This document shows, piece by piece, positions 4,773-29,438 of a DNA stretch of 64,000 nt. Origin of the DNA: Candidatus Parcubacteria bacterium (GTDB taxonomy: Bacteria; Patescibacteriota; Minisyncoccia; Phycocordibacterales; UBA918). Under the pieces are notes generated by a model. That model was not told the origin of the DNA, searched no databases, and worked only from the letters and a program-made list of their open reading frames with translations. Position 1 is the stretch's first letter. Each line of letters begins with the position of its first letter. The position numbers and the translations under genes are program-made. The DNA lies in assembly GCA_046050355.1 (NCBI GenBank), contig JBJOPW010000004.1:13755-77754 (forward strand), read 5' to 3'.

Positions 4773-4847
4773 TTCACAAAGACGAAATTGTTGACAGGCT
4801 GCAACATGGTGTTGCAGCTTTTTTGTACTGGTATTTAGGAGGTACCC

Positions 4848-8016: not shown

Positions 8017-8034
8017 TTTTGCTAGCATTTCCTT

Positions 8035-8916: not shown

Positions 8917-9070
8917 GCCTAACTGGGGAACTTCGCCCAAGCAGAAGTTCCACTGTCTAGGGCAGGATGCGGCACGACCGTATTCTGAGCCTGGACCGTT
9001 CCTTATCAGAGCTATGCCGCAAGGCCTGCTCACTAGGCATGTGTCCTTTCCCAGAAACGTGGAGATACCC

Positions 9071-12810: not shown

Positions 12811-12821
12811 ACTCGATCAGG

Positions 12822-14684
12822 TTACAGGCTGCGAACGTGGCTGATGCCGTTCTGCTCAAGGATGGCCACCATGTTGGTCTTGGCGATGTCATCGGCGAAG
12901 GCACTGTCCCGGAAGAAGACATGGGAGTCAGTCTCAGGCTCGAGCTCCCTGTGCCAATCCAGAATACCTTGAGCGAGACTGTCCACGAGGGTTGCTTCAA
13001 CTGAGGTATCAAGACATGCGAATAGCACGCCATAACCGACGCTGTAGACTGATTTTCCGGCAACTTTCCGTTCTTCTATTGGGGCAGTCAGCTCTATTCC
13101 ACGCTTCAACAAAAGTTCGCATAGTATATCTGCTTCGGACCGACCTTCAACAAGGTGATCCTTATTTAGAAGCAAGGCTCCCTCCATATCATTGCGATCT
13201 GGGGTCCAGGCTTTGATACCAGATCGATTCAGCTGGAAATAGCGAAAGCCTAGATCCTTCACCTTTCCTTGCATTGTTTTTCCAGCTCTCCTAATTCTTT
13301 CAGCCGACAGCTTTGCTATGTTTTCGTATCCGGCAGCTCCAGCTACAGAACTTTTGTCAATTTCCTCTGGCAACTGAATCTGGATAAACCTACGCGTCCC
13401 GCCATCTTCTGCATTGGCGGAGAGGACAGCATGGGCCGTGGTCGAAGAGCCGGCAAAAAAATCTATAATCAGATCATCTTTGCTGTCACTCTGTGACAAC
13501 TGAATCATCCGACGAATCAATCTTGTGGGCTTGGGATTGTCGAACATTCCGGCCATTCCTAAGGCCTTCAATTCACTATTGGATTCGTGATTATGGCCGA
13601 CTTCGTCATATGGCCACAATGTCGTTGGCGTAACCCCATCTTTTATTTCGCTCAGAAAGCTTTTTCTTGATGGAGTCTGGTCTCCTTTTTCTCCAAACCA
13701 AATCTCATCACCTTCATCCATCATTTTCATAGATGCATCATTGAAACGTCGATAGGTTCCAGCAGGTGGGGTCCATGTGACCCCATTTTTGAAGGTGTAG
13801 CTCGAGTTATTTGTTCCACTCTTGGCGTGCAAAGGCGTTGCCTTCCACGGTCCTTTGGGGTGACCATCTGGGTTCTTATAGGCACTTACTTGGTCTTCCG
13901 TGCGAGGAAGTTGATTTAGGACAAAACTATCTTTGTTTTTGGCGTAGCATAGGACATGATCATGATTTGATGAAAACCACTTAGCGTCGTTGGCGCGAGT
14001 GTATTTCTTTTGCCAAACGACATTAGCAATGAAGTTCTCTTCGCCAAATATTTCATCACAAATTTTTCGCAGGTTCGCCTGTTCCGTGTCATCTATTGTA
14101 ACGAAAATTACGCCCTCATCGGATAGTAGGGTTCTTGCGAGGCGGATTCTGGGATACATCATATTCAACCAATTGGTGTGTAATCTCCCGCCCGTTTCCA
14201 TATTGGATGAAAATTTCATTCCATCCGAGGCAATCTGGCCGGTATACTTAAGGTAGGTCTCAAGATTGTCTTGGAATCTGTCGGGATAGATGAATTCATT
14301 CCCAGTGTTATAGGGCGGATCGATAAAAATCATTCTAGCTTTTCCTGCATAACTTTTTTGCAGGAGCTTCAGCGATTCAAGGTTATCCCCCTCAATAAAA
14401 ACATTCCGAGTTGTGGCCCAATCGACACTTTCATCCTTTCGCGGTACGAGCGTCCCTGTGCTTGGCGTGAGAGCAATTTGTCGCGCTTGCTTCTTGCCAT
14501 GCCAGGTTAGGCCATACTTTTCCTCACCCTCATCTAGCACTTTTGCATCGCCAAGCAGCTGGCGAAGAACGTCAATATTCATCCCGCCTTCGGTGAAAGC
14601 GTCGGGAAACAGCGCCTTTAGCTTGGCAATGTTCTCGGCGATGATGTTGGCGCTCTGGCCGTCTTCGTGGGTGACTTTTTTCAT
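12822..14684 (-). CDS. mod: type III R-M DNA methyltransferase (Mod)
   Basis: IEGDNLE, IDPPYNTG, DFFAGSSTTAHAV. Confidence 0.95.
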   Translation of the reverse strand: MKKVTHEDGQSANIIAENIAKLKALFPDAFTEGGMNIDVLRQLLGDAKVLDEGEEKYGLTWHGKKQARQIALTPSTGTLVPRKDESVDWATTRNVFIEGDNLESLKLLQKSYAGKARMIFIDPPYNTGNEFIYPDRFQDNLETYLKYTGQIASDGMKFSSNMETGGRLHTNWLNMMYPRIRLARTLLSDEGVIFVTIDDTEQANLRKICDEIFGEENFIANVVWQKKYTRANDAKWFSSNHDHVLCYAKNKDSFVLNQLPRTEDQVSAYKNPDGHPKGPWKATPLHAKSGTNNSSYTFKNGVTWTPPAGTYRRFNDASMKMMDEGDEIWFGEKGDQTPSRKSFLSEIKDGVTPTTLWPYDEVGHNHESNSELKALGMAGMFDNPKPTRLIRRMIQLSQSDSKDDLIIDFFAGSSTTAHAVLSANAEDGGTRRFIQIQLPEEIDKSSVAGAAGYENIAKLSAERIRRAGKTMQGKVKDLGFRYFQLNRSGIKAWTPDRNDMEGALLLNKDHLVEGRSEADILCELLLKRGIELTAPIEERKVAGKSVYSVGYGVLFACLDTSVEATLVDSLAQGILDWHRELEPETDSHVFFRDSAFADDIAKTNMVAILEQNGISHVRSL

Positions 14685-14700
14685 GGTCTTCTTCTTGAAT

Positions 14701-15465
14701 TTAGTTGCTAAAGTTCAGGCGAGCTTCGAGCTTGAGTATAGCATCTTTTCGTTCCCTGATCATGCTGTTCAGGGTGATCTTGCTTCCCATCTGGTGCTCG
14801 CGATTCAGCGTGGTCCGGAGCTCAGCAATCTCGCGTTCCAGTTTGTGAATCTCCCCGAGAATGACAGTGTGTTCCTTGGATGCCGAGATCGAGGCCGAAA
14901 CGAACGTCCCGGTCCTGTCCGAGGTGATCAGCCCGATGACCTGGCTCTGGAATGCTTCATAGAGGGCATAAAAGTTGGTGGCGGGAAGCCGGTGAAGCTG
15001 AATGGCCTCCAGGAAGGCCGCCTGTGATGTCGAAGGCTTGTTCGGATCGATCCATTCGGTCTGCCAACGATCCACCAACACGAGCTTGGACTTGTCGGCC
15101 TGGTTGATCCGCTTTTCCGCAACACTGATGGCGATCTTGCCCGCGTGCTCGAACGCCAGGATCAGCGGATATGGAATGGCCCGGTGCATGAAGGCTGCGA
15201 CGCGATTGAGGCGAGCAGGATTCGACAGCTCGACCGAAAGGACGGCGATCTCCAGGTATTCTCGCTCGCTGTCCTGGAAGGGTGCGATGTTGATGGTGTC
15301 GGGCTTGAGCGTGTATTGCCAGCGGATGCGCCCGACATCCTCGCTCAGCGCCTTCCTGTCGGTCTGGTCTAGCTCTGCGTGATCGAGGAACATCTTCTTG
15401 TAGACCGGCTTGTCGAGCAAGCAGGCTTCAGGGATGCCAAGGCTGGAGAGGAAGGCGTCGATCAT
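14701..15465 (-). CDS. DUF4391 family protein
   Basis: HRAIPYP, KRINQAD, C-terminal coiled coil; between SNF2 helicase and mod. Confidence 0.8.
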   Translation of the reverse strand: MIDAFLSSLGIPEACLLDKPVYKKMFLDHAELDQTDRKALSEDVGRIRWQYTLKPDTINIAPFQDSEREYLEIAVLSVELSNPARLNRVAAFMHRAIPYPLILAFEHAGKIAISVAEKRINQADKSKLVLVDRWQTEWIDPNKPSTSQAAFLEAIQLHRLPATNFYALYEAFQSQVIGLITSDRTGTFVSASISASKEHTVILGEIHKLEREIAELRTTLNREHQMGSKITLNSMIRERKDAILKLEARLNFSN

Positions 15466-18400
15466 GCTGCGGCTTGGATAACGAGGAAGCTCACAACCTC
15501 AAAATCGTCTCCGCCCTTGAGGTGATCTTTGGTGAGCGCCGTACCGCCACGGGAAAAGAGGCTCTCGACGCCCTTTTCTTCAGTCTTGCCGACGACGCTC
15601 TCTATGGCGCGATCCAGCAGCTCTCGATAGGCGCTCATATCGCGCCCGTTCTTGGTTTTGGTGTTAAGGGCGTCGATGCTGGCGCGGTCTAGCTCAGTCG
15701 CAGACGCGGCGAGCTTCTTGTATACGTCCAGGCTCTTTTTGGCCTGAAGGTGATTGAACACGATGGTGCCCGCCTCGGAGACATAGATGAGGTAGAATGG
15801 CGTGAGCGCGTAGCTGTCTTCGTTCTGCACCTTACCCTTAAGGTCGCGCAGGCAGAAGATCACGCCTGGCACGGCTTGGTCAATGTTGGGCGACACAACC
15901 GCGTGAAAGCCGGTTGGTGAGCCTTCCAGGCGCTTCAGGTTTTCCTTCATGAAGCTGGACAAATCCATGCGGAAGTCGTTCAGCGTCATGTCGGTGATGG
16001 AGACGCTGCCATCCATGTCCTCAAGATCGATGACGGCATCTTGGAGCTGCTGCATTTGTTTGCGACGGTATTCCAGATCGTTCATCTGCTTGTTTTCGTC
16101 ATATTCGATGACGTTCTCTTCGCCGGTCGCGGAGATGTCCAAGAGCACCATGCGACCGCTCACGCGGGCTTCGAGGTTGATATACTCGTCGAGCTGCATG
16201 TTAGGCCAGAAATTGGTGAGCTGGATCGCGGCGTTCTTCGATCCTAAGCGGTCCACGCGCCCGAAGCGCTGGATGATCCGCACCGGGTTCCAGTGGATGT
16301 CGTAATTGACTAGCATGTCGCAGTCCTGAAGGTTCTGGCCTTCCGAAATGCAGTCCGTGGCGATCAGGATGTCGATGTCAGTCGTGGCATCGGGGTCGAT
16401 CTTGTCGCGCTCTTTTGAAACCGGCGAAAAATTAGTCAGGATGCTGTTGAGGTCGCGCGGCAAGCCGTCGATGGTGCAGCGGTTGGTTCCACTACCCGTC
16501 ACGAGCGCGCTGTGGAGGCCAAATTCCTTCAGCGCCCAGGTGTGTATGTGCTTGAAAAGATATTCAGCCGTGTCGGAGAAGGCGGTGAAAACGATGACCT
16601 TGTTGTTGCCAGGGTTGATCGGCGTTTTGAGCTTGGCGGCAATGGTGTCCTTCAGCTTTTGGAGCTTGGCATCGTCCGCAGCCGCAATCTTCCGCGCCTC
16701 GTCGAGCAGGTAGCCTAAAAGGATGTGATCGGCTTCGAGGTCCTGACGCATCCGGATGAGGTCCAGGTCCTGGATCAGCACCTTGACCTTTCGGCCAATC
16801 ATAAGGTCTTCGAGTTCGGGAGAATCTGCCTCGATGTCCTCGATGAGCAATTCCTCGATTTCCGTAGCCTCATGAGCATCGATCTTCGCGAGGAAGTTGC
16901 CGACCTGAGCATGAATCTTCTCGACGGTGAGAGCGAAGGAATGGATCGAGCTCTCCATCCGCTTAAGCATGTTGACGCGCATGAGGTGGATCAGGCTGCG
17001 CTCCCGGTCCACCTGCTTGAGCGTCGATTTCCCACCTTTGACTTGTTGGTCGTACTTGCGGCTGTAATCGTCCTGCTTGTCGGCGCGCACATAATCCAGG
17101 GGCGCGTAGGCCGCCAGAGAAAGCTTCTTGATTGAGCGGTTGATGTCCTTGAGCGGCGGGAACCGGCCATCCTTGTCGATGTCCGACTTCACATTCTGCG
17201 GCTTCAGACGCTCGGGGAATTTCCCGATTTCCGCAGTGTCGTAATACTTCTCGATATGCCGCCGCGACCGCGCGATGGTAAGCAGGTCGAGTAGCTTGAA
17301 ATAGCCGAAGTTAAGGCTTTCGAGCAGCCCTTCGGTGGTGCGGCTTTCAGCCGGTAGCTTCAGCCAGGTGTTGAACTGCGTCTGCGCGCGACGGAGTGTA
17401 ACTTCTATGCTTTGAATGCCCGCATCGGCTAGCGCTTTGTCCTGCCCTTCGGTGATGAAGGCGACCTGGTTCTTCAGGTCATTCAGGCGATTGTTCACCG
17501 GGGTGGCGGAGAGCATCAGGACTTTGGTTTTGACGCCTTTCCGGATTACCTCGTCCATCAGCCGCTGGTAGCGAGTGATCTTGTCTTTGCTCGGGTTGTT
17601 GTTTCGGAAATTGTGGGACTCGTCGATGACGATGAGGTCGTAGTTGCCCCAGTTGATCGTCTCCAGGTTAATCTCACCGGAGCGACCCGTCTCGCGGCTC
17701 AAGTCTGTGTGGTTCAGGACATCAAAGTTGAAGCGATCAGCCGCAAGCAAGTTGCGCTTGTCGTTGATCGTGTAGACAGTCCAGTTTTCTCGGAGCTTCT
17801 TGGGCGCGAGCACCAGAACGCGGTCATTGCGCAGTTCGTAGTATTTTATGACGGCCAGCGCCTCGAACGTCTTACCCAAACCGACGCTGTCGGCGATGAT
17901 GCAACCGTTGTAACGCTCAAGCTTGTCGATAGCGCCGAGAACGCCGTCTTTCTGGAACTTGTAGAGCTTGTTCCAAACTAACGTGTCCTTAAAGCCAGTC
18001 TTCGACCGTATGATGCTTTCCTCATCGATTTCCTCGATGAAGTCCCTGAAGATATTGAACAGGGTGATGAAGTAGAGAAGGTTCGCAGGCTTATCGGAGG
18101 CGAGGAAATCAAGGCTTTCAAGCACCGCATCCTTTGCATTGCGAACGGCAGTTGGATCATTCCAGATTGTCTCGAACCAGTTGAGCAACTGCTTCGTTGC
18201 CTCCGGGTCTTTCGCCACGGTGTTCATCGCAAAGCTGTTGGATCGCACAACGCCAAGACCAGCGGCTGTAAAGTCCGAAGTGCCAGCGACGGCAACCACT
18301 TCACCAAGGGGTGGTTGAATGTGAAAAATATTCTGCGCGATAGGCGCTCCTGCGAGCTGTCGGACCTGAGCCTTCTTTCGAACCCATTCCGCACACTCGG

Positions 18401-18653
18401 CGGCGATGCGCTGGAGGTTCAGCTCATTCTTCAGGCCAATCTCTTCAGTGGTCCCGGCTAGAGGCAGCGGGAGAGCGGCATCAGGTCGCGCCAAGAGAAT
18501 GCGCAAGTCCTGAACCTTGTTGAGCTCTGACTTCAGGGCGGAATAACCAAAAACGGAAAACCAGGCGGTCAAAACCAACATTTTCGAGTCTGGGCTCAAG
18601 GCCGCTCGAAGTTCGTCTACGACCTTGCCGTGGACCTTGTTATCTAGAAGCAT
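15462..18653 (-). CDS. SNF2-family helicase with N-terminal PLD-like domain
   Basis: ADSVGLGKT, DESHNFRN, SATP, SEGQNLQD, QRFGRVDR; start placed at MLLDNK (alternatives upstream). Confidence 0.9.
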   Translation of the reverse strand: MLLDNKVHGKVVDELRAALSPDSKMLVLTAWFSVFGYSALKSELNKVQDLRILLARPDAALPLPLAGTTEEIGLKNELNLQRIAAECAEWVRKKAQVRQLAGAPIAQNIFHIQPPLGEVVAVAGTSDFTAAGLGVVRSNSFAMNTVAKDPEATKQLLNWFETIWNDPTAVRNAKDAVLESLDFLASDKPANLLYFITLFNIFRDFIEEIDEESIIRSKTGFKDTLVWNKLYKFQKDGVLGAIDKLERYNGCIIADSVGLGKTFEALAVIKYYELRNDRVLVLAPKKLRENWTVYTINDKRNLLAADRFNFDVLNHTDLSRETGRSGEINLETINWGNYDLIVIDESHNFRNNNPSKDKITRYQRLMDEVIRKGVKTKVLMLSATPVNNRLNDLKNQVAFITEGQDKALADAGIQSIEVTLRRAQTQFNTWLKLPAESRTTEGLLESLNFGYFKLLDLLTIARSRRHIEKYYDTAEIGKFPERLKPQNVKSDIDKDGRFPPLKDINRSIKKLSLAAYAPLDYVRADKQDDYSRKYDQQVKGGKSTLKQVDRERSLIHLMRVNMLKRMESSIHSFALTVEKIHAQVGNFLAKIDAHEATEIEELLIEDIEADSPELEDLMIGRKVKVLIQDLDLIRMRQDLEADHILLGYLLDEARKIAAADDAKLQKLKDTIAAKLKTPINPGNNKVIVFTAFSDTAEYLFKHIHTWALKEFGLHSALVTGSGTNRCTIDGLPRDLNSILTNFSPVSKERDKIDPDATTDIDILIATDCISEGQNLQDCDMLVNYDIHWNPVRIIQRFGRVDRLGSKNAAIQLTNFWPNMQLDEYINLEARVSGRMVLLDISATGEENVIEYDENKQMNDLEYRRKQMQQLQDAVIDLEDMDGSVSITDMTLNDFRMDLSSFMKENLKRLEGSPTGFHAVVSPNIDQAVPGVIFCLRDLKGKVQNEDSYALTPFYLIYVSEAGTIVFNHLQAKKSLDVYKKLAASATELDRASIDALNTKTKNGRDMSAYRELLDRAIESVVGKTEEKGVESLFSRGGTALTKDHLKGGDDFEVVSFLVIQAAA

Positions 18654-18819
18654 GTGGACTTTTGCCTTGCCTGAAGAGTCGTCGTATGTGGTTGATTTTT
18701 TATGGGAATCCATGCCTTTTCTAGTCTCATTATCATTCCACAGATCGAGACTACAAGCAAAGGTTGGGTGACCGGATTCTGCAGACCCGGCCACCCGCGC
18801 TCCCACAAGGGGAGGGTCG

Positions 18820-19005
18820 TCAGGTCTCGCGGCGCGTGATCCGCTCTTGGAGCCATTCCAGCACTTCGCTTTCGACCCATCCGACCCGGTTCGGCCCGAG
18901 GTTTACCCGCTTGGGGAATGCTCCGACCTTTTCCAGCCTCGCGACGTGTTGCGGCGAGTACAGGACCAACTCTTTGAGCTGGCGCTTTGAAAGTATCCTC
19001 ATCAC
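18820..19005 (-). CDS. AlpA-family regulator/excisionase
   Basis: FPKRVNLGPNRVGWVESEVLEWL. Confidence 0.9.
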   Translation of the reverse strand: MMRILSKRQLKELVLYSPQHVARLEKVGAFPKRVNLGPNRVGWVESEVLEWLQERITRRET

Positions 19006-19199
19006 GATCTCTCCATGGTGAAGAGCATCGCGATGCCCAGGGTTACGACGTTCCTAGGTGTGAGGAGAGTAGTGCGAGATTAGTTGCCATGCCATAGAGT
19101 TGTGCCGCTCTTGATCCGTTCCTGCATGGCCAGTGTGCGCTTTGATTGAACCGGGATAGGGTTTTCGATTAGACTCCTGCACATGAAATGGAGGTACGA

Positions 19200-19517
19200 A
19201 TGAGCAGTATTGACTTGAACGCTCTCGACTTGGCTGAACTCAAGCAGTTAGCCAAGGACGTGTCGAAGGCGATTTCGGGGTTTGAGGATCGGAAGAAGTC
19301 GGAGGCTCGGGCTGCGCTCGAAGCTCAAGCCAAAGAGCTTGGCTTCACGCTGAGCGAGCTACTCGGGACTGGTAGCGGAAAGACGCGCGCACCGACCGTC
19401 GCCAAGTACCGCCATCCCGAGAATGCTTCGATTACATGGTCTGGCCGTGGCCGTAAGCCGCACTGGTTTTCAGACGCGATCGCAAAAGGTGTCTCTCCCG
19501 AGTCGTTAGCGGTATAG
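19200..19517 (+). CDS. hns: H-NS-like nucleoid protein (Rhodobacter HvrA/Spb type)
   Basis: GGAGG RBS; KYRHPEN...TWSGRGRKPHW; short N-terminus DLNALDLAELKQL. Confidence 0.9.
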   Translation: MSSIDLNALDLAELKQLAKDVSKAISGFEDRKKSEARAALEAQAKELGFTLSELLGTGSGKTRAPTVAKYRHPENASITWSGRGRKPHWFSDAIAKGVSPESLAV

Positions 19518-19589: not shown

Positions 19590-19833
19590 AGGTGGTCTAG
19601 AAGGTGGACCGGATTCTCAGCGCTCTACAAAAGCTATATTTTTCAGTGCATTGGAAAATTTAGTGGTGCCCAGAGCCGGAATGGGATTGCCGGAACATTC
19701 CAACACATAGCCTTGCATTTTCAATTTCTTAGACCAAGTCGCGGCTCCAAGGGCAACACATCGCCGAACATCGCTGAACATACAATCACAACCCTTGAGG
19801 TGGACTAAAAGGTGGACTAGAAAAGGTGGACTG
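19590..19833. other. attP-like site of the tyrosine integrase (arm - tRNA 3' core - arm)
   Basis: AGGTGGWC arm repeats at 19590, 19602, 19798, 19810, 19824; core 19664-19682 is the reverse complement of ATTCCGGCTCTGGGCACCA, a tRNA 3' end with CCA; ACATCGCYGA tandem repeats at ~19758-19777. Confidence 0.75.
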
Positions 19834-19845
19834 CGGGAGGATTCG

Positions 19846-21006
19846 ATGGTTCTCTTGAACAGCCTGAACCCACTGAAAGCAAAGAACCTAGTCGCAGGAA
19901 AGCACGCTGACGGCCAAGGACTTTGGCTAGTGAAGAGTGAGCGCACTCGGGGAAAGTGGGTTCTCCGCGTTGTCGTCCAAGGAAAGCGTCGGGAAATGGG
20001 TTTGGGCCGGTGGCCTGACGTCTCCATTGCTGAAGCGCGTGAGTTGGCCGCGGAGGCGCGGAGGAAGCTCCGGACAGGCATCGATCCGATAGCTCAACGT
20101 GTTGAAGGCCGGAAGAAAGTCGTACGCCTAACGGTACAACAAGCAGTGGACGCGTGCTTCGAGGCACGAAAAGCAGAACTCAAGAGCGACGGCGAGGCGG
20201 GTCGCTGGATGTCTCCGCTCTCAGTCCACGTGCTGCCGGTGATTGGAAAGACTGCGATAGAGGACGTCGATCAACATGTGCTGAAGAAAGCTTTGGAGCC
20301 CATCTGGCACTCAAAGGCCGACACAGCTCGAAAAGCTCTAAACCGCCTCAGCTTGACCCTAAAGCATGCGGCTGCACTTGGACTGGAAGTAGACCTCCAG
20401 GCAACGATGAAGGTCCGGGCTCTCCTAGGCAAACAAAGGCACGTGTCCGAACACATTCCTTCGATGCCATACAAAGACGCACCGGCCTTCTATCGCTGGC
20501 TCTCCGAACAGACCTCGGCGGCAGCCCTACCGCTTCGCTTCCTCATTTTGACAGCTGCCCGAACTGGAGAGGTGCGCTATGCTCGGCATAGCTACATTGA
20601 GGACAAAGTTCTTACACTCCCTCCCGAGATCACAAAGACCGGGCGTGAACACAAAATTCCGCTTACATCGGAAGCCGCAGCAGTGATCAACGCTGCGAAG
20701 CTGCAAGACAGCCAGGACCTGTTGTTCCCTTCCCCAACCGGAAAGACCTTCTCTGATGCGACAATGTCACGATTAATGCAGCGTGAAGGCCTAGTTTATA
20801 GGCCCCATGGCTTCAGGGCCACATTCCGGACGTGGGTCGAAGAACAAACTGACACTCCTCTCGAAGTGGCTGAGGCCGCACTCGGGCACGTCGTAGAGGG
20901 ACAGGTCATCCGGGCCTACCAACGATCTGATCGACTTGAGAAACGACGATCCTTGCTAGTCAAATGGAGCAAGTATCTGCAAGACACAGGACACCCCAAC
21001 CCATAG
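19846..21006 (+). CDS. P4-like tyrosine integrase with arm-binding domain
   Basis: GGAGG RBS; HADGQGLWL, REMGLG, R(TGE), HGFR, LGH, catalytic Tyr in RAYQR. Confidence 0.95.
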   Translation: MVLLNSLNPLKAKNLVAGKHADGQGLWLVKSERTRGKWVLRVVVQGKRREMGLGRWPDVSIAEARELAAEARRKLRTGIDPIAQRVEGRKKVVRLTVQQAVDACFEARKAELKSDGEAGRWMSPLSVHVLPVIGKTAIEDVDQHVLKKALEPIWHSKADTARKALNRLSLTLKHAAALGLEVDLQATMKVRALLGKQRHVSEHIPSMPYKDAPAFYRWLSEQTSAAALPLRFLILTAARTGEVRYARHSYIEDKVLTLPPEITKTGREHKIPLTSEAAAVINAAKLQDSQDLLFPSPTGKTFSDATMSRLMQREGLVYRPHGFRATFRTWVEEQTDTPLEVAEAALGHVVEGQVIRAYQRSDRLEKRRSLLVKWSKYLQDTGHPNP

Positions 21007-21021
21007 CAACCAAAAATACGG

Positions 21022-21783
21022 TCAAAGCCTGATTATTGTATCCTGAACCTGCAGAGCGCTCATCGCCGAGCAGAACTCAGTCAAGCCAAAGTCTCGATTA
21101 AATCGGTCATTAGACTCATGAACCAAAAGCGTCTTCGCCGCGAAGACAGCGCCCGAATCACGTGCGAGTACTATAGCTCTCAAGTACTTCCGGTCCAAAT
21201 CTCCAGAAATGCTACCAGACACAACCCGAAGATAACTGGTGTCTGCTCCTACAACATAGACACGATCTGCCTGGCAAAAGTAATAACCCTGATGATCGGG
21301 GTCAACGCTTTTCCGAGCAACTTGGAATGGAGAAACGTCATCATCACCGATCGATCTGTAAGCGTCAAAGAACTTATCGAAGTTCTTGCGCTTAATGAAA
21401 TTCATGAACCGGAATAGACCACAGTACTCAAAGAAAATTAACCCTCCAGAAACTAAGTCCCCAAACCCATCCGACCGGTAATAACGAAATGCACCAAGCA
21501 GAGTCCGTGCCTGCTGAATAGACTGACTATCTATCCCCAGACTCTCGCTAAGCGCTGAGTACGTTCTAAATTGCCTGTTTGGAACTCTCAAACACACGTC
21601 AACTTTTGCAAGAGACGAAAGTTCAACTTCTTCCCCCCTATAGATTTTTTCAAGTGTCGCAATGTCTGGCGCACGCGAGCCAAAGACCTTCTTGAACGCC
21701 CGAGCAGTCTTGAAGCCGTCCGCTACCGCTCTAGCCAAAACTTCATCACCGACCAACGTTCGAGCGCCTGACTTCAACACCAC
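21022..21783 (-). CDS. hypothetical protein, possible HTH + beta-rich ligand-binding domain
   Basis: PDIATLEKIYRGEEVELSSLAKV resembles the XRE recognition-helix region; beta-strand-rich C-terminus; divergent from the radical SAM operon. Confidence 0.55.
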   Translation of the reverse strand: MVLKSGARTLVGDEVLARAVADGFKTARAFKKVFGSRAPDIATLEKIYRGEEVELSSLAKVDVCLRVPNRQFRTYSALSESLGIDSQSIQQARTLLGAFRYYRSDGFGDLVSGGLIFFEYCGLFRFMNFIKRKNFDKFFDAYRSIGDDDVSPFQVARKSVDPDHQGYYFCQADRVYVVGADTSYLRVVSGSISGDLDRKYLRAIVLARDSGAVFAAKTLLVHESNDRFNRDFGLTEFCSAMSALQVQDTIIRL

Positions 21784-21988
21784 TACCCACTCCCGAATCT
21801 AACGATTCCTCATCAAATCGCAAGATTCTCATACCAGTCCCGGCACTGCAAGATCAAGTCGCACGAGCGAGGTAACGATCCCAACAAACAACTGAAAATC
21901 GGTGTTTTACCAGTGACTCGTAGGCGTGCGACCATGGAGCCGCAGATGAGAGCAACTGATCTGCGCGAACGTAGACGGGAGGAACAGA

Positions 21989-23317
21989 ATGCGCATCGCA
22001 ATGGTTTACCCAGAAGTCTTCGACCTTGCACGGTTCAATGAAAAGCGGAAAGAGTTTCCGCCTTTTGGGGTAATGTACCTATCCGCCATGATGGAGCAGG
22101 CAGGGCACGTTGTCCAAGTATTTGCCATATCCTTCGAAACGAGTGCGATCGATTTCCGAGGCTTCGATGCAGTAGGATACTCCATCCCATCATCAGCAAC
22201 TTTTGGTATAACAAAGAAGGTACGGTTTGCTAGTAAGTACGACGAGGGGGCACTGATCATGGCTGGTGGAGTACACGCAAACCTTTACCCACTGCAGACT
22301 CTGGATGAATTGGAACCGGACGTTGTTGGCATTGGTGAGTGCGAACAGACCATACTCGACATCTTGGAGAGGGGTAAGAATGCGGATTTTGGTAACATCC
22401 TCGGAGTCGCCTTTAAGAAGAACGGGGAAGCAGTGAAGACACCTCCTCGTCGAGTAGATAAAGACATTGACTGGCTTCCACTTCCATCCCGACACCTCCT
22501 GCCTCGGTCAGACATTGTGATGAGCAATCGACTATCTAACACGGACATCGAAATGGCCCACGTCATGTTCACACGTGGATGCCCGTTTCCGTGCAGGTTC
22601 TGTGCAGTTGCGCAAACTAAGATACAGTATCGCTCAGGCGCCAGCGCAAGACGTGAAATAGTTCACCTAATGGAAACTTATGGAATAGGTGGTTTCGCCA
22701 TTGTCGATGACAATTTCATCGTTGACAAGCGTAAGGTTCATGACGTAGCCGAAAGCATCCAAGACCTCGGTGTAAAATGGTCGGCTCTTTCCCGAGTCGA
22801 CACCATTGACAAAGAACTGCTCACGGCAATGGCCTCATCCGGATGCATCGAAATTAAGTTTGGAATGGAGTCAGGGAGTCAGAGAATTCTTGATGCAATG
22901 CAGAAAAACACGACCCCGGAACAGATCCTAGAGGCCGCAAGGCTTTCATATGAAGCCGGCATCAAGGCCAAGTTCTTTATTGTTCATGGTTATCCTGGTG
23001 AAAACATGGAGACCACAGCCGAGACAATCGCCCTCCTTGATAGAGCTAAAAGATATGTAGATCGAGTTTCGCTCTTCAGGTTTGCCCCATTGCCGGGGAC
23101 ATATGTCTACAATCACCCTGAAGAGTTCGGCCTCCGGGGAACGGACCGGCAAGCAGACTGGGATGGCAACTGGGATAAATATCATATTTATCACAATGCG
23201 TACCACTGGTGGGGAACGGATGATCAATTTGAAGAGCTGAACAGGGCGCACACGGAGATCTCCAACTATATTGACGAAACTTGGCCAGCGACTTTTCAAC
23301 CGCCCCAAAATGTGTAA
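21989..23317 (+). CDS. B12-binding radical SAM enzyme
   Basis: GGAGG RBS; PPFGVMYL, AGGVHA (cobalamin domain); RGCPFPCRFC; DDNF; GMESGSQRIL; GYPGE. Confidence 0.92.
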   Translation: MRIAMVYPEVFDLARFNEKRKEFPPFGVMYLSAMMEQAGHVVQVFAISFETSAIDFRGFDAVGYSIPSSATFGITKKVRFASKYDEGALIMAGGVHANLYPLQTLDELEPDVVGIGECEQTILDILERGKNADFGNILGVAFKKNGEAVKTPPRRVDKDIDWLPLPSRHLLPRSDIVMSNRLSNTDIEMAHVMFTRGCPFPCRFCAVAQTKIQYRSGASARREIVHLMETYGIGGFAIVDDNFIVDKRKVHDVAESIQDLGVKWSALSRVDTIDKELLTAMASSGCIEIKFGMESGSQRILDAMQKNTTPEQILEAARLSYEAGIKAKFFIVHGYPGENMETTAETIALLDRAKRYVDRVSLFRFAPLPGTYVYNHPEEFGLRGTDRQADWDGNWDKYHIYHNAYHWWGTDDQFEELNRAHTEISNYIDETWPATFQPPQNV

Positions 23318-23327
23318 AACTTAGAGA

Positions 23328-24074
23328 ATGGAGAGGATTGGAACTGTAGAAGCGGTGTTCCTACGCAAGGCACATGGCCGTGCTGTTGAGGAATCAACAG
23401 TCCTCAACTTAGTGGCTGATTTCGGGATCGTAGGGGATATCAACTTCTCGGCTTCGTCGCCTCGCCATTTGCTACTTAAGAGGATTGGACGTCCAGGCGA
23501 TTGGACGGACAACGCCGGTTACTTCAATGAAAACGTTTCTTTCACTTCTGAAAGTCTGAATTCGCTTCGTCCGGGAGACATCGTAAGAGTTGGCTCCGCA
23601 ACTCTCCTCGTTCGTTCAAAAAATGAGCGGTGCAACATTTTTGCGCCAGAGGTCCGCGTGGCACGAGGCCTTCATTGTGTTTGCATAGACGCCGGATCCA
23701 TTCGTCGTTCGGATGACATCATAAAGCTCGGTAGCGTTTCTATCGCAGAGGACAGTCGCGCGGCACTATTGGTAACGGGCCTCAGGGCTGTTCCGCTCGG
23801 AAGAGTGGTGACTTTTGAAGATGCATGCACTATGATTGGTGGCAGCCGCCCACACTTGCGGATCATTCCAAGACTGCTAAAGATTGCAATTACTTTGCAT
23901 CCAACTGGGGTTCCATTTCACAGGTTAGTCAAATCTAAGGGTGATCTAATTGACAACATTGTCACTGATCAGATGCTCCTCCTGGCGGCGGAAGGTATAT
24001 CGACTTCAAACGGAAGAACTGTAAATCTTCAGTTCCGTCATGTTTTCGGGAGAAACCCATTTTGCGAAATGTAA
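23328..24074 (+). CDS. MOSC domain fused to an alkyltransferase-like (ATL/MGMT-fold) domain
   Basis: GIVGD, ENV, LRPGDIVRVG, GSIRRSD (MOSC); VPLGRVVTF...PFHRLV...LAAEGI (ATL, no catalytic Cys). Confidence 0.7.
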   Translation: MERIGTVEAVFLRKAHGRAVEESTVLNLVADFGIVGDINFSASSPRHLLLKRIGRPGDWTDNAGYFNENVSFTSESLNSLRPGDIVRVGSATLLVRSKNERCNIFAPEVRVARGLHCVCIDAGSIRRSDDIIKLGSVSIAEDSRAALLVTGLRAVPLGRVVTFEDACTMIGGSRPHLRIIPRLLKIAITLHPTGVPFHRLVKSKGDLIDNIVTDQMLLLAAEGISTSNGRTVNLQFRHVFGRNPFCEM

Positions 24075-24478
24075 GCTGCTTTGTCTCGATGGCAATTGAA
24101 GCTCGTGAAGCACTTAGTGAAGAGCTCTCCGCAATTAAGAGTGTGTGCAGTAGATTTGGTGTTAGAGCCCATGTCTTCCTAGATGAATACTCATTTGAGA
24201 AAGGCAAAGAATCCCAAATGATGGCGGAGGTCGTTTCGTGTATTAATGGCTGTGATTTCTTGATTGCTGAAGTAAGCAAGAAGGCGATTGGGGTGGGGTG
24301 TGAGGTTGGCATCGCTGCAGCATTGGGAAAGCCGGTGATCTATTGTCGGCAGGCAGGGAGTCCAGCTTCGCTGACGGTTGGCGGACTGGCAAGTTTTACT
24401 CTGACTTATAGTGAAGCCAACGAACTTGCGCGGAAACTAAGTTTCGTATTAGAGAACAGGTTCTTCGAGTCCGACTAG
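24062..24478 (+). CDS. nucleoside 2-deoxyribosyltransferase/N-glycosidase fold protein
   Basis: CDFLIAEVS..IGVGCEVGIAAALGKPVI; overlaps the upstream stop. Confidence 0.85.
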   Translation: MRNVSCFVSMAIEAREALSEELSAIKSVCSRFGVRAHVFLDEYSFEKGKESQMMAEVVSCINGCDFLIAEVSKKAIGVGCEVGIAAALGKPVIYCRQAGSPASLTVGGLASFTLTYSEANELARKLSFVLENRFFESD

Positions 24479-24573
24479 ATTTCGATGCTACTTGGACCGG
24501 ATCCCGATCTTTTATCTGGGTGTCCGGCATCTAGTGTCTTAGTCAAGGCAATGAGAATTCATTGAAGTGAGGA

Positions 24574-24603
24574 AGTTTGAGAAGTGTTTCGAAGTGGGTC
24601 ACA
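24574..24603. repeat. internal copy of the right attachment site
   Basis: AGTTTGAGAAGTGTTTCGAAGTGGGTCACA matches 29107-29136 at 27/30, same orientation. Confidence 0.85.
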
Positions 24604-24909
24604 TTTTGGAAGTTTCGGAGCCTTCCTCGTTGCTCCGGCTCATTGTTTAACTTGATGACGGTCGCCGTCACGGGTCAGTGTGTTGATCGTACAGGATCCA
24701 TGAGTGGGGTTTCGAAGCGGTCCCTGCATACCTTGGAGTTCCGGGTAGCTCGGGTGGAGGATAGTGATATTCGAGGCGCTCTCCCGTGTGGAGTGCTCGC
24801 CAATGACAGTTTGGTCGCGCATGCTGTCAGGCGCAGGACGCTAGAAGACCCTCATTGACAACTCATGGTATAGTATCTATGTCTTACTAGCTAAATGTAG
24901 AGGTAAACC

Positions 24910-25152
24910 ATGTCCGAGAAATACAAATTCAAAGTTGAGAATGAAACCTACGAGTGGGGCGATGCAACCATCACCGCAGCGGAAGTACGCGGGGTCGGTC
25001 CAGGGATTCCTGATAGCATGGATCTCTTTGTGAAGCTTCCCGGAAAGCCTGCGCGCTTAGTGTCGGATCCAGGCGAAGTCTTTGATCTCTCGAAGCCGGG
25101 AATCGAGAAATTCTTTGCGCAGAACTCATCGTCGGAAGCGGGCGCCAACTAA
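24910..25152 (+). CDS. ubiquitin-like protein (multi-ubiquitin-type beta-grasp, single domain)
   Basis: YKFKVE..YEW...IT...FDLSKPGIEKF; ends EAG-AN, consistent with a pro-form Gly tail. Confidence 0.8.
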   Translation: MSEKYKFKVENETYEWGDATITAAEVRGVGPGIPDSMDLFVKLPGKPARLVSDPGEVFDLSKPGIEKFFAQNSSSEAGAN

Positions 25153-25154
25153 TT

Positions 25155-25562
25155 ATGCCGTTATTGTTCGAAGATGACTACGAGTACTTGAAAAGTACTG
25201 GGCTAAAGTACGATGAGTACACGGACCAGCGCTTCTTGGTGGTCAGGGCTTACCCCGTTCCGGAGGGTAAGTACATCTTCGAAGGACAACCGGTTCGGAC
25301 GGTCGATGTCCTGTCCATTATCCCGCCAAACTACAACACCGAAGGCTGCGACATGTTCTGGGTGCACCCAGCGATATCGCGTGCTGATGGAAAGCCCATT
25401 CCGGCAACTGGCGGCGACGACAGAGTCTTCGACAACACGACCTTCGTTCGTTGGTCCAGGCACTGGCCTGCCGGTCGATGGAGACCCAAGGTTGATACAA
25501 TAGAGACCATATTGAGCCGTATCGACTGGGCCTTGCATAACCCAGACCCTGCTGAAGCATGA
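25155..25562 (+). CDS. prokaryotic E2 (family E) conjugating enzyme
   Basis: YPVPEG, IPPNY, DMFWVHP, RWSRH, WRP..DTIET. Confidence 0.85.
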   Translation: MPLLFEDDYEYLKSTGLKYDEYTDQRFLVVRAYPVPEGKYIFEGQPVRTVDVLSIIPPNYNTEGCDMFWVHPAISRADGKPIPATGGDDRVFDNTTFVRWSRHWPAGRWRPKVDTIETILSRIDWALHNPDPAEA

Positions 25563-27010
25563 GCCAACCCCGCATCACCCTCCTGCAATCACATCGAGAG
25601 CGCTTGGAGCGTTGGTTACCGTCTCATCCAGAGCATCACGAACGTGCCGCTGTAGTACTGTTCCGCTCGTTTGCACGAGAGGTACTGGAACAGACTCAAT
25701 CAGAACGGCTCGTCTCGGTCGACGTGATCGAAATGACTGATGACTGGCTCGTGGAGAGCTCAGTCATCAGTGTCAAAGTCAACCTTCGAAAGCTTGTGGA
25801 TCTGTATTTCCGCTGTGAGCAGGAGGGCTTACACTTAGGCTTCGTACATAGTCACCCACTTGGTGCTGACGCCTTCTCGGGTCAGGACGATCAGAACGAA
25901 CAAAACATCTTGCGGGGCTACGCTGGCTGCAATGGACGAGACTCAAGATTGGTGGCTCTTGTCTACGTCGACGGCGAGTGGATTGGTCGGGTGCGTTATG
26001 CGACCAAGCCAACCGAGAGCTCGCCTGTTCGTCACATACTTACACTGGGGGAAACCCTTGCTGTACACCATTTGACCAACCCGGAGGGTGATCTGGCTAC
26101 ACTGGAGCGACAGGCGGCCGCTTTCGGTCGACCATTTAATCAAAAGCTTCAGTCTCTTAGAGTTGCAGTGGTTGGGTGCGGAGGTACCGGCTCACCAACT
26201 GCTACCCTTCTGGCTCGCGCAGGTGTCGGCGAACTTATTCTCATTGATGGTGACAACCTAGAGGAAAGCAATCTCAACCGGGTTCGAGGCTTGCGGAGAG
26301 ATGATGTCGGACACAACAAGGCAGAGAGGCTGTGTTCGTACATCCGCTCCTTATCCCTGCCAACATCCGTGTCGTTTGTCCCCAATTATCTTGAGGACAA
26401 TCGGGCAGCTGTCGACGCACTTTCCTCAGCCGATGTCGTATTCGGCTGCACCGACACCGTGGCAAGTCGAGAACTCTTAAACGAGGCTCTGTACTATTAT
26501 GGGTTTGTGCTCATTGATTGCGGACTGTCGGGAGAAGTTGCCAGCACTGCTGATGGGAAACCAAGGCTCATTGAGCATCGCGGTCGCGTAAGCACCGTGC
26601 AGCCCGAAACTGGAGCTTGCCTGCGCTGCCAAGGGGTCGTCACAGACAACAAACTGAGATACGAGAGAGCGGTCAACGAGAACCCAGAGCTCAAGAAGCT
26701 CGACGCCAAAACGCTGCTCCGCGAACATTATCTAGTTGGCGGAGGCGAAGCCGCTCCGGGGGTCGGACCGTTCACTAGCGCAACTGCCGATCTTGCTGTC
26801 TCCTCACTATTTGAACTCATTCATCCATACAGACAACTGGGCGGCGATTTCCGTCCTGACAATATTTGGCAAGATTACTTGCATATGACTTATCACAGTA
26901 ACGAGCCCCGAAACCTTTCTGCCGATTGTTATTGCTGTGGCACGCGCGCGATCCTACTGAAGCGTGAGCGTCAAGTTCTACTGGACAGACCGGCACTTGG
27001 TACGATTTGA
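25559..27010 (+). CDS. JAB peptidase - ThiF/E1 fusion
   Basis: E...HSHP...FSGQD (JAB); GCGGTG, DGDNLEESNLNR, GCTD, CLRC (E1). Confidence 0.9.
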   Translation: MSQPRITLLQSHRERLERWLPSHPEHHERAAVVLFRSFAREVLEQTQSERLVSVDVIEMTDDWLVESSVISVKVNLRKLVDLYFRCEQEGLHLGFVHSHPLGADAFSGQDDQNEQNILRGYAGCNGRDSRLVALVYVDGEWIGRVRYATKPTESSPVRHILTLGETLAVHHLTNPEGDLATLERQAAAFGRPFNQKLQSLRVAVVGCGGTGSPTATLLARAGVGELILIDGDNLEESNLNRVRGLRRDDVGHNKAERLCSYIRSLSLPTSVSFVPNYLEDNRAAVDALSSADVVFGCTDTVASRELLNEALYYYGFVLIDCGLSGEVASTADGKPRLIEHRGRVSTVQPETGACLRCQGVVTDNKLRYERAVNENPELKKLDAKTLLREHYLVGGGEAAPGVGPFTSATADLAVSSLFELIHPYRQLGGDFRPDNIWQDYLHMTYHSNEPRNLSADCYCCGTRAILLKRERQVLLDRPALGTI

Positions 27011-27011
27011 T

Positions 27012-27446
27012 ATGAATCTAGGCATTCCCAAGATATTTCTAAACTTCTGGAAGAAAGCACGGCTTCCAGAAATCCAAGAACCTACCAATCATGTGAGGCA
27101 CTATCAAGCTGCCCTGATCTTGGAAAGAACACCAAGCAACTCGGCAATCGGAGATCGCGATTTTGTATTCGTGATCTATGAGACCGTTCCACGGTGGGCA
27201 CTGTTTCGATGCCCCTGCGGCTGTAGCGAAGTCATCAGCCTACCCCTAGCTGCTCCACACAATCCTCGATGGGCCGTCTATGTCGACGAGGATGGCTTCG
27301 CTTCTCTGTATCCATCCGTTTGGCGCAACACTGGCTGCATGAGTCACTTTGTAATTCGCTCAGGATGTGTATTCTGGGCGAATAAGAGCGGGGTCAGCCC
27401 ATTTGAAGCCAGCCCAAATTTCTATAAGCCTCGCATTCCCAAGTAG
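27012..27446 (+). CDS. DUF6527 family Cys/His metal-binding protein
   Basis: CPCGC, SLYPSVW..GCMSHF. Confidence 0.85.
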   Translation: MNLGIPKIFLNFWKKARLPEIQEPTNHVRHYQAALILERTPSNSAIGDRDFVFVIYETVPRWALFRCPCGCSEVISLPLAAPHNPRWAVYVDEDGFASLYPSVWRNTGCMSHFVIRSGCVFWANKSGVSPFEASPNFYKPRIPK

Positions 27447-27460
27447 AAGGGACGTGAGCT

Positions 27461-28882
27461 CTAGTATTCCCAGCGAACAAAATAGCCAGACCGTCCATAG
27501 CAGTCGTATCCGCGCTTGTCCTTATGTGCCTTGAGCATTGTCCCGGAGCTCTTCCTCTTGAACTCTTTTCCGCAGTAGGTACATGCGATCACCTGAAGGG
27601 GTCCACCAGAGTAGGTTGAAGGCCTGCGATTCACTCGACCCGCCGAACTTCCTCCTCGCTTTGTCTGGGCACCAAGCCGACCGCCTCCTCCAAAGTAGGA
27701 ATTTTCTGGCAGCTCACCTGCTTTTGACAGTTCGACCTCGAAGCGCGGTTCGAACTTTTCTTCAAGTATCTGTGGCTTCTCAACTTTTGGATTAACCAGG
27801 GACTTGATTCCGGTTGACCCTGAGGCACCTCCAGTTCGATCCCACACATAGAAGTATTCGCGCGGAGACCCGTCCGATGGACGTTTGTAGCTTAGAGCGT
27901 AAGGTTCGACGACCCTCTCGTATCCGTCATAGGTTAGTCGGATAAGCCGTTGTTGAGACCCGGCTTCCAAGAAGACGTTACGAAGTTCTGCCGGAAAGAA
28001 GGCATCGCTTATGCGATCTGCCATACCGCTCGTTTCGAATACACTATCGACGAACCGCGTGTACGCTTCTGTCGCGGTGTCGAAGTCTATTTTGCTTGCT
28101 GCCGGGCAAACTATGTATTTCTCCCATGCCGCCCGGAAGAAGGCCATGGGGAGACCAAGGAGTATTTGCCGAGCTGAACCCGGACTTCGTTCAAAGATGG
28201 TCTTCTTGAGAAAGACGCTTGCAATTGTTGATCGATCAAGGTCAATCCGATCATCAAAGAACGCAGCGTAAACTAGATCGTAGAGATCATGGGAGTGACG
28301 ACGTTGCAGCAAGCATTTGAGCTTAGATGCCATGCCCTCTTCGAGAGCAACACATCTAAGATTTACTCTGCAGACATCTGAATCCGAATATGGATGAATA
28401 AGTGGAACCGTGCTCACTGGAAGATACAAGCGGTCGAACTCTGTCACATCCATCCGAACTGAAATTTCCAGCGCGCTTTTCTGGCCATAGAAATCTTCGA
28501 AGAAGACCTTTCCCTTGTAGATTTTTCTGTCGGTGTTTTTGCCGAGATTGGCCCGTGCGGCTTCTTTGAAAGAGCTTCTCTCACTTACAAACTTGATACC
28601 CGATACAGCTTGAGCCATCTTGCAGCTACGTTCAATTTGAGCAGTCAGTTCATCCAAGTCAACTGCACGTTCAGTTGAGAAATCCAGGTCAGAGGAGAAC
28701 CTGGTGTTCGGAAAGTACGCTTTTCGGAAGCAGTTTCCGCCCTTTAGGATGAGAAGGTCACTGAGATACTCATTTTGGTATATTGCAAACAGGAGCCAGC
28801 CGAAGACGTAGTCACGCTGAACATTCGAGGTATTGATCTCGAATTCAGCAGATTTCTGGTCGATTTCATCTCTCTCGATCAT
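27461..28882 (-). CDS. AbiEii-type nucleotidyltransferase fused to WYL domain and C-terminal Zn finger
   Basis: LKGG..RFSSDLDFS, K..RR..HDLYDL; LTYDGYERVVEPYAL (WYL); CTYC..H..C. Confidence 0.85.
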   Translation of the reverse strand: MIERDEIDQKSAEFEINTSNVQRDYVFGWLLFAIYQNEYLSDLLILKGGNCFRKAYFPNTRFSSDLDFSTERAVDLDELTAQIERSCKMAQAVSGIKFVSERSSFKEAARANLGKNTDRKIYKGKVFFEDFYGQKSALEISVRMDVTEFDRLYLPVSTVPLIHPYSDSDVCRVNLRCVALEEGMASKLKCLLQRRHSHDLYDLVYAAFFDDRIDLDRSTIASVFLKKTIFERSPGSARQILLGLPMAFFRAAWEKYIVCPAASKIDFDTATEAYTRFVDSVFETSGMADRISDAFFPAELRNVFLEAGSQQRLIRLTYDGYERVVEPYALSYKRPSDGSPREYFYVWDRTGGASGSTGIKSLVNPKVEKPQILEEKFEPRFEVELSKAGELPENSYFGGGGRLGAQTKRGGSSAGRVNRRPSTYSGGPLQVIACTYCGKEFKRKSSGTMLKAHKDKRGYDCYGRSGYFVRWEY

Positions 28883-29106
28883 GTGACTACTCTACACCAA
28901 ATCCCAAGCTACGGCACCTTAAGGCGATGATGACGGTTTGGCCAAGGAACACAACCCGTATGGCACCTCTATGCTGCATCTGCTGTGTCTTGAGGCTTTT
29001 GATACTTCAAATTGTACTGCCACTGCGGGATCTTATTTGGAGTACACGCTGGTCTTTTAGGACAGAAGGTTAGAAGGTGGCTCAGGGACGTCTTCATCTC
29101 CTTTAG

Positions 29107-29150
29107 AGTTCGAGAAGTGTTCCGATGTGGGTCACACTGGCGGCAAAACC
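29107..29150. repeat. right hybrid attachment site (element arm, core 29127-29135, host arm)
   Basis: Core GTGGGTCAC at the point where pyrE-like sequence ends. Confidence 0.8.
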
Positions 29151-29438
29151 GGTGGCGGCAGTGGGGATGCCGATGATGATGGGTTGACGCCTTTCATCAT
29201 CGGACAAAATGTCGCAGATGCGTTTGCCGATGAATCGTCCGCACCGCTCAGTCAGGGATGGGTTGTCGGTCAGGTCGCCACGACCATTGAAGTAGATGTG
29301 GCTCGCTACACCGCTTTTCAGTGTGAACGGATCTTCTGTCCACACCAACATTCCATATTTGACCATTTCACGGATCAGGTCGATCTCCTCGTTTTCGAAG
29401 CGACGACCTGCACCGAATGGTGAAGTAAGTTCTGGCAA
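29127..29438 (-). pseudogene. pyrE: 5' part of an orotate phosphoribosyltransferase-like gene interrupted by the element
   Basis: FTLKSGVASHIYFN and IIGIPTAA; the PRPP-binding motif is missing; frame continues as YDPRTF in bases 18-1. Confidence 0.7.

Follow-up and report, generated by a model that had tools for sequence, protein, structure and literature searches.

An unsplit tyrosine-integrase attachment site within an island that appears to have entered a Patescibacteria chromosome through its serine recombinase

The DNA analysed here (the window) is a stretch of 64,000 nucleotides from Candidatus Parcubacteria bacterium (contig JBJOPW010000004.1, positions 13,755 to 77,754), and it carries an island of about 29.1 kb with two site-specific recombination modules, a tyrosine integrase lying beside a tRNA-type attachment site and a large serine recombinase whose gene is cut at the island boundary. 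The tyrosine site occupies positions 19590-19831. Its core, ATTCCGGCTCTGGGCACCA, is a 19-bp tRNA 3' end, CCA included, on the minus strand (19664..19682). The P arm (19590..19609, plus strand) lies 54 nt from the core on its left and consists of two arm-type repeats, AGGTGGTC and AGGTGGAC; the P' arm (19798..19831, plus strand) lies 115 nt from the core on its right, consists of three repeats, all AGGTGGAC, and ends just before the ribosome-binding site of the integrase. Between the core and the P' arm, GAACAT boxes are located at 19693, 19766 and 19776 (19693..19781, plus strand), the last two forming a 10-bp tandem repeat; Tandem Repeats Finder reported a 10-bp unit present 2.4 times at 19758-19781 and a 14-bp unit present 2.7 times at 19798-19832. 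The motif AGGTGGWC is found eight times in the 64 kb, against an expectation of 3.33 (standard deviation 1.93), and five of the eight matches, all on the plus strand, are packed into 242 bp (19590, 19602, 19798, 19810 and 19824). A search for the core that tolerates as many as three mismatches finds a single copy in the window (expected 0.00), and the whole 939,894-bp genome likewise contains one, the next matches there carrying 4-5 mismatches and none of them lying within a tRNA. Neither ARAGORN nor Rfam detected a full tRNA at the site. The anatomy described by the original prediction, with a tRNA-type core of 19 bp, two left and three right arms, 10-bp tandem repeats and no full tRNA, was therefore recovered in all its parts.

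The gene to the right of the site (19846..21006, plus strand) encodes an intact P4-type heterobivalent tyrosine integrase of 386 aa (Pfam Arm-DNA-bind_3, Phage_int_M and Phage_integrase), with the arm-binding domain PF13356 (4.1e-18) at the N-terminus, PF22022, and the catalytic domain PF00589 at the C-terminus. Residues R239, K264, H321, R324, H348 and Y358 are invariant in all eight sequences aligned, that is, the integrase and seven relatives, and we take this R-K-H-R-H-Y set to be the catalytic residues of a tyrosine integrase. A start at TTG 19795 had been proposed for the gene; ATG 19846 behind GGGAGGA is most likely the true one, and with it the three right-hand repeats would fall in the integrase promoter and leader region. 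The site had also been placed between an AlpA gene and the integrase. The integrase does stand on the right side, whereas the left arm adjoins a gene for an H-NS-like DNA-binding protein (19188..19517, plus strand; Pfam PF00816, E 6e-17), which has a 46% identical counterpart in the element of genome G323, and the AlpA-family regulator (18820..19005, minus strand; Pfam PF05930, E 6.3e-11), a candidate for the excisionase that would assist the tyrosine integrase, lies one gene further out. Copies of AlpA 75-82% identical are found in alphaproteobacterial loci. The Rfam family RF02649, 'Ruegeria trans44 sRNA' (small RNA), has a full-length match at 18774-19035 on the minus strand (174.6 bits against a gathering score of 108) that covers the alpA open reading frame and its flanks; since match and gene coincide, this family may represent the alpA transcript of the present element family in Rhodobacterales.

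The isotype of the core was determined by tRNA prediction at exact matches to the 19-mer, of which a set of genomes with one representative for each prokaryotic species yielded at least 120. Among the 120 matches listed, 97 correspond to the 3' end of tRNA-Phe(GAA), including CCA, which answers the question of isotype raised together with the site; the others fall in tRNA-Leu(TAA) (7), in tRNA-Leu(CAA) (2) or outside any predicted tRNA (14). By their titles, these loci are largely from Alphaproteobacteria (Rhodobacterales, Rhizobium) and Clostridia. No close relative of the integrase lies within 8 kb of the tRNA-Phe genes in these 120 loci, and a tblastn comparison of the integrase with them gave one distant match (L095, 32% over 157 aa). 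Relatives of the element itself reside at tRNA-Phe in Alphaproteobacteria. The host is a Patescibacteria genome of 0.94 Mb, 99.97% complete and 0.03% contaminated, with 42 tRNA genes, the ends of which match the core at 11 of 16 positions at best; its own tRNA-Phe differs from the core at the 3' end and is not followed by CCA. The named relatives of the host's RelA/SpoT protein all belong to Parcubacteria, Paceibacteria or bacteria labelled 'Patescibacteria group', and a protein search with its TopA yielded no usable taxonomic signal. The default ARAGORN run reported two tRNAs in the window, and the Leu and Gln genes lack an encoded CCA, as had been claimed for three flanking tRNAs. The third of them is probably a tRNA-Thr(TGT) that the default run missed (54310-54618, minus strand), the anticodon loop of which is interrupted by a group I intron of 236 nt (match to Rfam RF00028 at 54356-54598, 79.2 bits).

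The state of the site can be read from the position of the arms in integrated relatives. Genome G323, whose integrase is 62% identical, contains an integrated element of 41.6 kb. At the integrase end of this element, tRNA-Phe is followed by GAACAT boxes, three to four GGTGG-type repeats and the integrase, and at the far end two repeats (GGTGGCCTAGAAGGTGGTCT) are located 56 nt from an 18-bp core fragment (C1:1625055-1625072). In genome G107 (integrase 60% identical) the core is oriented as in the window. One of its contigs (C10) reads from a repeat-free host flank through an inverted 16-bp tRNA-Thr 3' end, GAACAT boxes and repeats into the integrase; on another (C6) this 16-mer runs on into a full tRNA-Thr gene, and two repeats (GGTGGACTAAAGGGTGGACC) stand at a distance of exactly 54 nt from it. 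Since the two-repeat and the three-repeat arms occupy opposite ends of the element in both G323 and G107, their presence round one core corresponds to the attachment site of the circular form (attP) and not to the split sites of an integrated copy, which is what had been proposed for this locus. Fifteen of 80 metagenome loci show the arrangement of G107, in which the inverted tRNA 3' end is followed by GAACAT boxes, repeats and the integrase; the flank on the left is variable, with sequences that are mutually unrelated and free of arm repeats over the 110 nt left of the core. Five other metagenome loci have a full tRNA directly upstream, in the orientation of G323. No second copy of the core was found within the 10-kb flanks of the metagenome loci.

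Arm repeats at the P' position are present in most of the relatives displayed as well. The GAACAT(A/G) boxes occupy two fixed places between the core and the right arm repeats in nearly all relatives examined (including L128, L129 and L158-L207), and they may be the binding site of an accessory protein such as AlpA, H-NS or a host factor. Within this single integrase family (60-66% identity) the core is found in either orientation, and the spacing of the arms is conserved at 54-56 nt and 114-119 nt. As a consequence of the two orientations, elements differ in whether the integrase adjoins the tRNA gene or sits at the opposite end. The sole remark we offer on the dual orientation is that the 3' part of the tRNA is partly self-complementary.

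Arms also flank a core where two related elements have accreted in tandem at one tRNA gene, and such an array does exist. In Albidovulum sediminis (G001, C11:7382-63951) two elements of 17.9 and 38.6 kb follow each other downstream of tRNA-Phe; a repeat of about 49 bp, ending in the 19-mer of the window, bounds them in three copies. The second of these elements carries a backbone of the window type (recombinase 63%, orf8828 81%, coupling protein 67% and AlpA 79% identity), together with a different, distantly related integrase and the longer repeat. A tandem array, however, needs outer copies of the core. The second copy that was to mark a separate nested island is found neither in the window nor in the 99.97%-complete genome, which excludes a nested or tandem island. 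Moreover, what bounds the island is not a pair of core copies but hybrid sites of the serine recombinase, situated in a host gene, and the genes on both sides of the attachment site belong to one backbone that is contiguous in relatives. We therefore give a junction of two elements hardly any credence, and read the site as the attP of a single element.

The island extends from window 19/27 to 29127/29135, and each end is marked by one copy of the sequence GTGGGTCAC, both identified by comparison with relatives: the left copy (19..27; attL of the serine recombinase) has host DNA on its left and the element on its right, and the right copy (29127..29135; attR) has the element on its left and host DNA on its right. 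This crossover sequence falls in the 3' end of the island's own serine recombinase gene (14..1444, minus strand). The gene encodes 476 aa (Pfam Resolvase, Recombinase and Zn_ribbon_recom; PF00239, 8e-32, PF07508 and PF13408) and is truncated by the integration of its own element. Its translation contains YIRVSTQKQ at residues 7-15, the serine of which is presumably the N-terminal catalytic serine. At the left junction the protein ends in ...SAPDGDPL*, with the stop codon in host DNA, and the displaced 3' tail of the gene, reading ..DPHRNTSRT.. from the crossover in a minus-strand frame, is found together with the left half of the serine attP at the other end of the island (28969..29126). An unsplit recombinase of 529 aa from another data set (P0241), 97% identical, reads SAPDGDPHRNTSRT uninterrupted, and the seven relatives of which the 3' region was read (L019/G001, L158, L170, L173, L216, L221 and G323) all continue past the break with a similar motif. 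Among the 120 recombinase matches listed, the homologues measure 478-610 aa, against 476 aa here, and the named ones are all from Alphaproteobacteria or 'Pseudomonadota'. In the 3' end of the relatives' genes a DNA block, GTTCGA..GT....GTGG.CACC, is conserved, and the window contains two copies of it, each of them a half: GTGGGTCAC at 19-27 is followed by the relatives' sequence and preceded by unrelated sequence, and at 29127-29135 the situation is reversed.

Put together, the unrelated outer sequences make up a single host gene. Its N-terminal half (29136..29363, minus strand) lies in the window and the C-terminal half (C4:13359-13772, minus strand) outside it, and in G850, a genome of the same genus, both match one continuous frame (L263:1228-1455 and 1501-1878). 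The intact orthologue reads CATAGTGGGTCACACTTGC across the junction, and relative to it the insertion is conservative, no bases having been lost or gained. The N half has no Pfam match and the C half matches Pribosyltran at E 0.014, below the cut-off, so that 'phosphoribosyltransferase-like' is a weak label for this gene. The hybrid attL and attR resolve into one attP and one attachment site of the host (attB) with a short common centre; a contiguous natural serine attP is found in L019, L170 and G323, and a contiguous natural attB in G850. Entry by the serine recombinase, as it had been proposed, is thus supported by the island ends, where the 3' end of the recombinase gene forms hybrid sites with a host gene that G850 has in one piece. 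G412, the nearest genome of the same genus, agrees in gene order to the left and right of the place and lacks the island: tRNA-Tyr, pilin-like genes, tRNA-Trp and miaA on the left, and a methyltransferase, tRNA-Leu(CAA), ParB, RelA and TopA on the right, with a gap of about 1 kb between the two sides against 31 kb in the host genome (G000). G412 offers no base-exact empty site, because its intergenic region differs and the split gene is absent, and it was G850 that supplied one. Upstream of the window, the pilin-like genes are two adjacent T4SS_pilin (PF18895) genes between tRNA-Tyr and tRNA-Trp (L238; C4:9379-12165), and the pair is kept in G412.

An island so foreign could in principle be a product of assembly or binning, with alphaproteobacterial DNA misjoined into a Patescibacteria contig. 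The guanine plus cytosine content of its first 20 kb is 53-58%, against 47-48% for most other host contigs, and its named relatives are alphaproteobacterial. On the other hand, the host DNA is syntenic with G412 on both flanks, the insertion is base-exact within one host reading frame that is intact in G850, and an assembler would not be misled by a repeat of only 9 bp. The joints are also crossed by separate Logan contigs: those of run X2 cover window 16275-30400 with 0 differences, through the right junction and the attP, and one of run X1 extends from 16296 leftwards over 20.7 kb across the left junction. Both runs may come from the source sample itself, so that they bear on the correctness of the assembly and not on the biology. 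An artefact is, on this evidence, most improbable. From runs X4 and X5, whose matches to AlpA, the P arm and AbiEii are all short and in part diverged, we draw no inference.

Gene order carries the argument further. To the right of the recombinase lies a conserved backbone (1651..9784, both strands), recognised by Pfam and by its order in G001 and G323, which comprises an ATPase (1651-2805, minus strand), DUF3768 (3026-3559, plus strand), two unknown open reading frames, a coupling-protein-like ATPase (5932-8016, plus strand), Replic_Relax (8035-8916, plus strand; Pfam 2e-18) and then orf8828. G001 and G323 share these genes and their order. Identities are 47-81% for the named genes of G001, where orf4848 reaches only 31% over 62 aa, and 38-63% in G323. 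In G323 and in five metagenome loci (L158, L170, L173, L216 and L221) the integrase is followed by 2.5-9.8 kb of variable cargo and then by the serine recombinase on the opposite strand; these six loci continue with the ATPase (minus) and, where long enough, with DUF3768 (plus), and the longer ones add the coupling-protein-like and Replic_Relax genes. In the window the order is recombinase, ATPase, DUF3768, coupling-protein-like gene and Replic_Relax, then, further along, AlpA, H-NS, attP, integrase and cargo. As far as gene order tells, this is the relatives' circle opened at the serine site and not at the tyrosine site. G323, the five metagenome loci and P0241 thus provide the tRNA-integrated, permuted relatives with an unsplit serine recombinase that the original prediction had called for.

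Taken together, these observations lead us to read positions 19590-19831 as a complete attP of a P4-type tyrosine integrase, carried in an alphaproteobacterial-type two-module element of about 29.1 kb that would have entered a Patescibacteria chromosome via its serine recombinase; we put the probability of this reading at roughly 0.85. Directly observed are the anatomy of the site, junctions of hybrid sequence, a host gene and a recombinase gene that are both split, and a permuted gene order in relatives. That the serine recombinase catalysed the insertion is inferred from the sequence, as are continued activity of the tyrosine module and the route by which the element was transferred into this host. 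Several points weigh against the reading. Both element ends were recovered in only two integrated relatives, G323 and G107, and those of G107 are on separate contigs. With respect to the arms, the core points the opposite way from that of G323, although its orientation agrees with G107. The Logan contigs contain no joint expected of the circle or of the empty site, and contigs cannot reveal rare forms. The position of the serine attP is defined only by comparison, and a 9-bp microhomology is conceivable in principle. Finally, the symmetry of the half-sites is modest. With the 9-mer as the centre, strict symmetry holds at 6 of 30 positions, or at best 8 of 16 with a one-base shift; in the element half-sites CCGATG/CATCGG is a perfect inverted repeat, about 10 positions match when it is extended with one length difference, and the repeat is visible only with TGGGTCAC as the centre and that length difference.

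The last two points bear on a further explanation, in which the serine recombinase took no part in the entry of the circle, and an illegitimate or microhomology-mediated event chanced on the 3' end of the recombinase gene. A serine integrase requires a central dinucleotide shared between the partners, and these share nine identical bases, more than the dinucleotide. However, the break lies in the sole DNA block, GTTCGA..GT....GTGG.CACC, that is conserved where the protein tails of the relatives otherwise diverge, it is flanked by the inverted CCGATG/CATCGG, and the insertion is conservative when compared with G850. A recombination site inside the serine integrase gene is, besides, a described arrangement, as the cited passage on a streptococcal mobilisable element reports (PMC5357655). 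Chance recombination is accordingly improbable, if somewhat less so than the other two explanations, and we retain insertion by the serine recombinase as the likelier course.

Homologues of the tyrosine integrase number in the thousands. The closest, 80-88% identical, are on metagenome contigs, and below this level the named ones are nearly all alphaproteobacterial, the exception being P0078 (Candidatus Sedimenticola). In the plasmid collection 379 records match, every one below 60% identity, and in viral contigs one locus does, at 59%. Relatives are present in 66 of 401 sampled genomes of the order of Albidovulum sediminis, Rhodobacterales (E <= 1e-100, best identity 66%), in none of 127 other genomes of the host genus, and in one of 400 other genomes of the host order, at 37% identity. 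Among the homologues of the integrase and of the serine recombinase the same longest-contig values recur (8648, 30063, 14979, 13100 and 13131 nt), an indication that in the nearest relatives, too, the two genes sit together on a single short piece of DNA.

We propose the following course of events, in which the steps after circularisation are our reconstruction. The element would circularise, in its usual hosts presumably by the tyrosine integrase with AlpA, restoring attP; the present copy may have been excised earlier from a tRNA gene in a previous host. The circle would then be transferred, probably by mobilisation, considering its Replic_Relax and coupling-protein-like genes and no visible mating pore, and either module could integrate it in the recipient. 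Here no host tRNA offers the core, so that the tyrosine route would be closed and attP left without a partner. The serine recombinase would instead have recombined the site at its own 3' end with a look-alike in the phosphoribosyltransferase-like gene of the host, and a circle opened at the serine site would carry the tyrosine attP in whole. The element is probably mobilisable rather than self-transmissible. The matches to coupling proteins are weak (T4SS-DNA_transf 7e-05, above the cut-off; TrwB 1e-3, below it), and no VirB4-like or mating-pore gene was found among the open reading frames scanned by Pfam, a scan that included no dedicated search for type IV secretion systems.

Two blocks of cargo complete the island. 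The first, between backbone and AlpA (9817..18806, minus strand), holds a type III restriction enzyme and methylase, DUF4391 and an SNF2 helicase (Pfam; PADLOC REase_III, MTase_III and HKD+Snf2). The second, beyond the integrase (21022..28882), is variable and includes a B12-radical SAM protein, a nucleoside deoxyribosyltransferase-like protein, multiubiquitin and E1-JAB proteins and AbiEii (Pfam; PADLOC E1-E2 and AbiEii). No counterpart of this second block was found in the loci of relatives save one weak radical-SAM match (21% identity, L071). Within it, positions 21989-27446 encode the B12-radical SAM and nucleoside 2-deoxyribosyltransferase-like proteins, a protein with a multiubiquitin domain and an E1(ThiF)-JAB fusion (PADLOC E1-E2), a block that looks like a ubiquitin-like defence system brought into a Patescibacteria genome. 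The transferred defence load would thus comprise type III restriction, SNF2, ubiquitin-like E1-JAB and AbiE.

Large serine recombinases are known to need no host factors. Where a recipient has no tRNA-Phe site, the serine recombinase may serve this family as a fallback independent of host factors, and the present island could mark a recent jump from an alphaproteobacterium to a Patescibacteria of the Parcubacteria/Paceibacteria-like kind; we offer this only tentatively and hold it to be rather doubtful. If it is true, a jump by the fallback route would imply direct transfer of DNA, probably mobilisation by helper conjugation, and hence physical contact, perhaps a host-symbiont pairing of the two lineages in a freshwater community. 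The locus is in any case a natural record of alternative entry routes, in which a whole tyrosine attP and a recombinase gene split by its own action would be the legible scars. It supplies base-exact predictions of attP, attB, attL and attR for an uncharacterised serine integrase, and a full map of arms and core for a widespread alphaproteobacterial integrase family. Recent transfers across phyla into a genome of the candidate phyla radiation are rarely as clean, with a donor lineage that can be identified (Rhodobacterales-like), and comparable cases could help to infer the natural contact partners of ultra-small bacteria.

Each module alone is already known, the tyrosine one from tRNA integration of the P4/IntS type, the serine one from integrases with an intragenic site, and elements with several integrases are known as well. 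In satellite phage P4 the integrase has an arm-binding N-terminal domain and lies beside attP, arm repeats are on both sides of a tRNA-derived core, and the repeats overlap the promoter. The window shares with P4 the arm-binding domain, the flanking arm repeats, the tRNA-derived core and the integrase adjoining attP; it differs in target tRNA and host range, and in a family core that is found in either orientation (G323 against G107 and the window). It may likewise be set beside IntS and attP of the Mesorhizobium integrative and conjugative element (ICE) ICEMlSymR7A; the window element, of about 29 kb, has no visible mating-pore genes, carries a second, serine module and is not inserted at a tRNA.

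For the serine module, the nearest parallel is given by streptococcal integrative and mobilisable elements (IMEs) such as IME_Spy2096_SNF2, whose serine integrases are described as inserting into protein-coding genes with the site inside the integrase gene (PMC5357655). The island appears to share both traits, and differs in phylum and family, and the cited passage mentions no second, tyrosine module for those IMEs (PMC5357655). The literature searched, mostly at the level of abstracts and excluding supplements, gave no precedent for tyrosine and serine modules used as alternatives with an intact attP, nor a described dual-module element of this kind in a Patescibacteria genome. Several site-specific integrases with separate attachment sites do occur together in the tripartite ICEs of Mesorhizobium (IntS, IntG and IntM; PMC8627217). 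There, the three integrases act in sequence on one chromosome to assemble the circle, whereas the two modules of the window appear to be alternatives, one of them idle with its attP whole.

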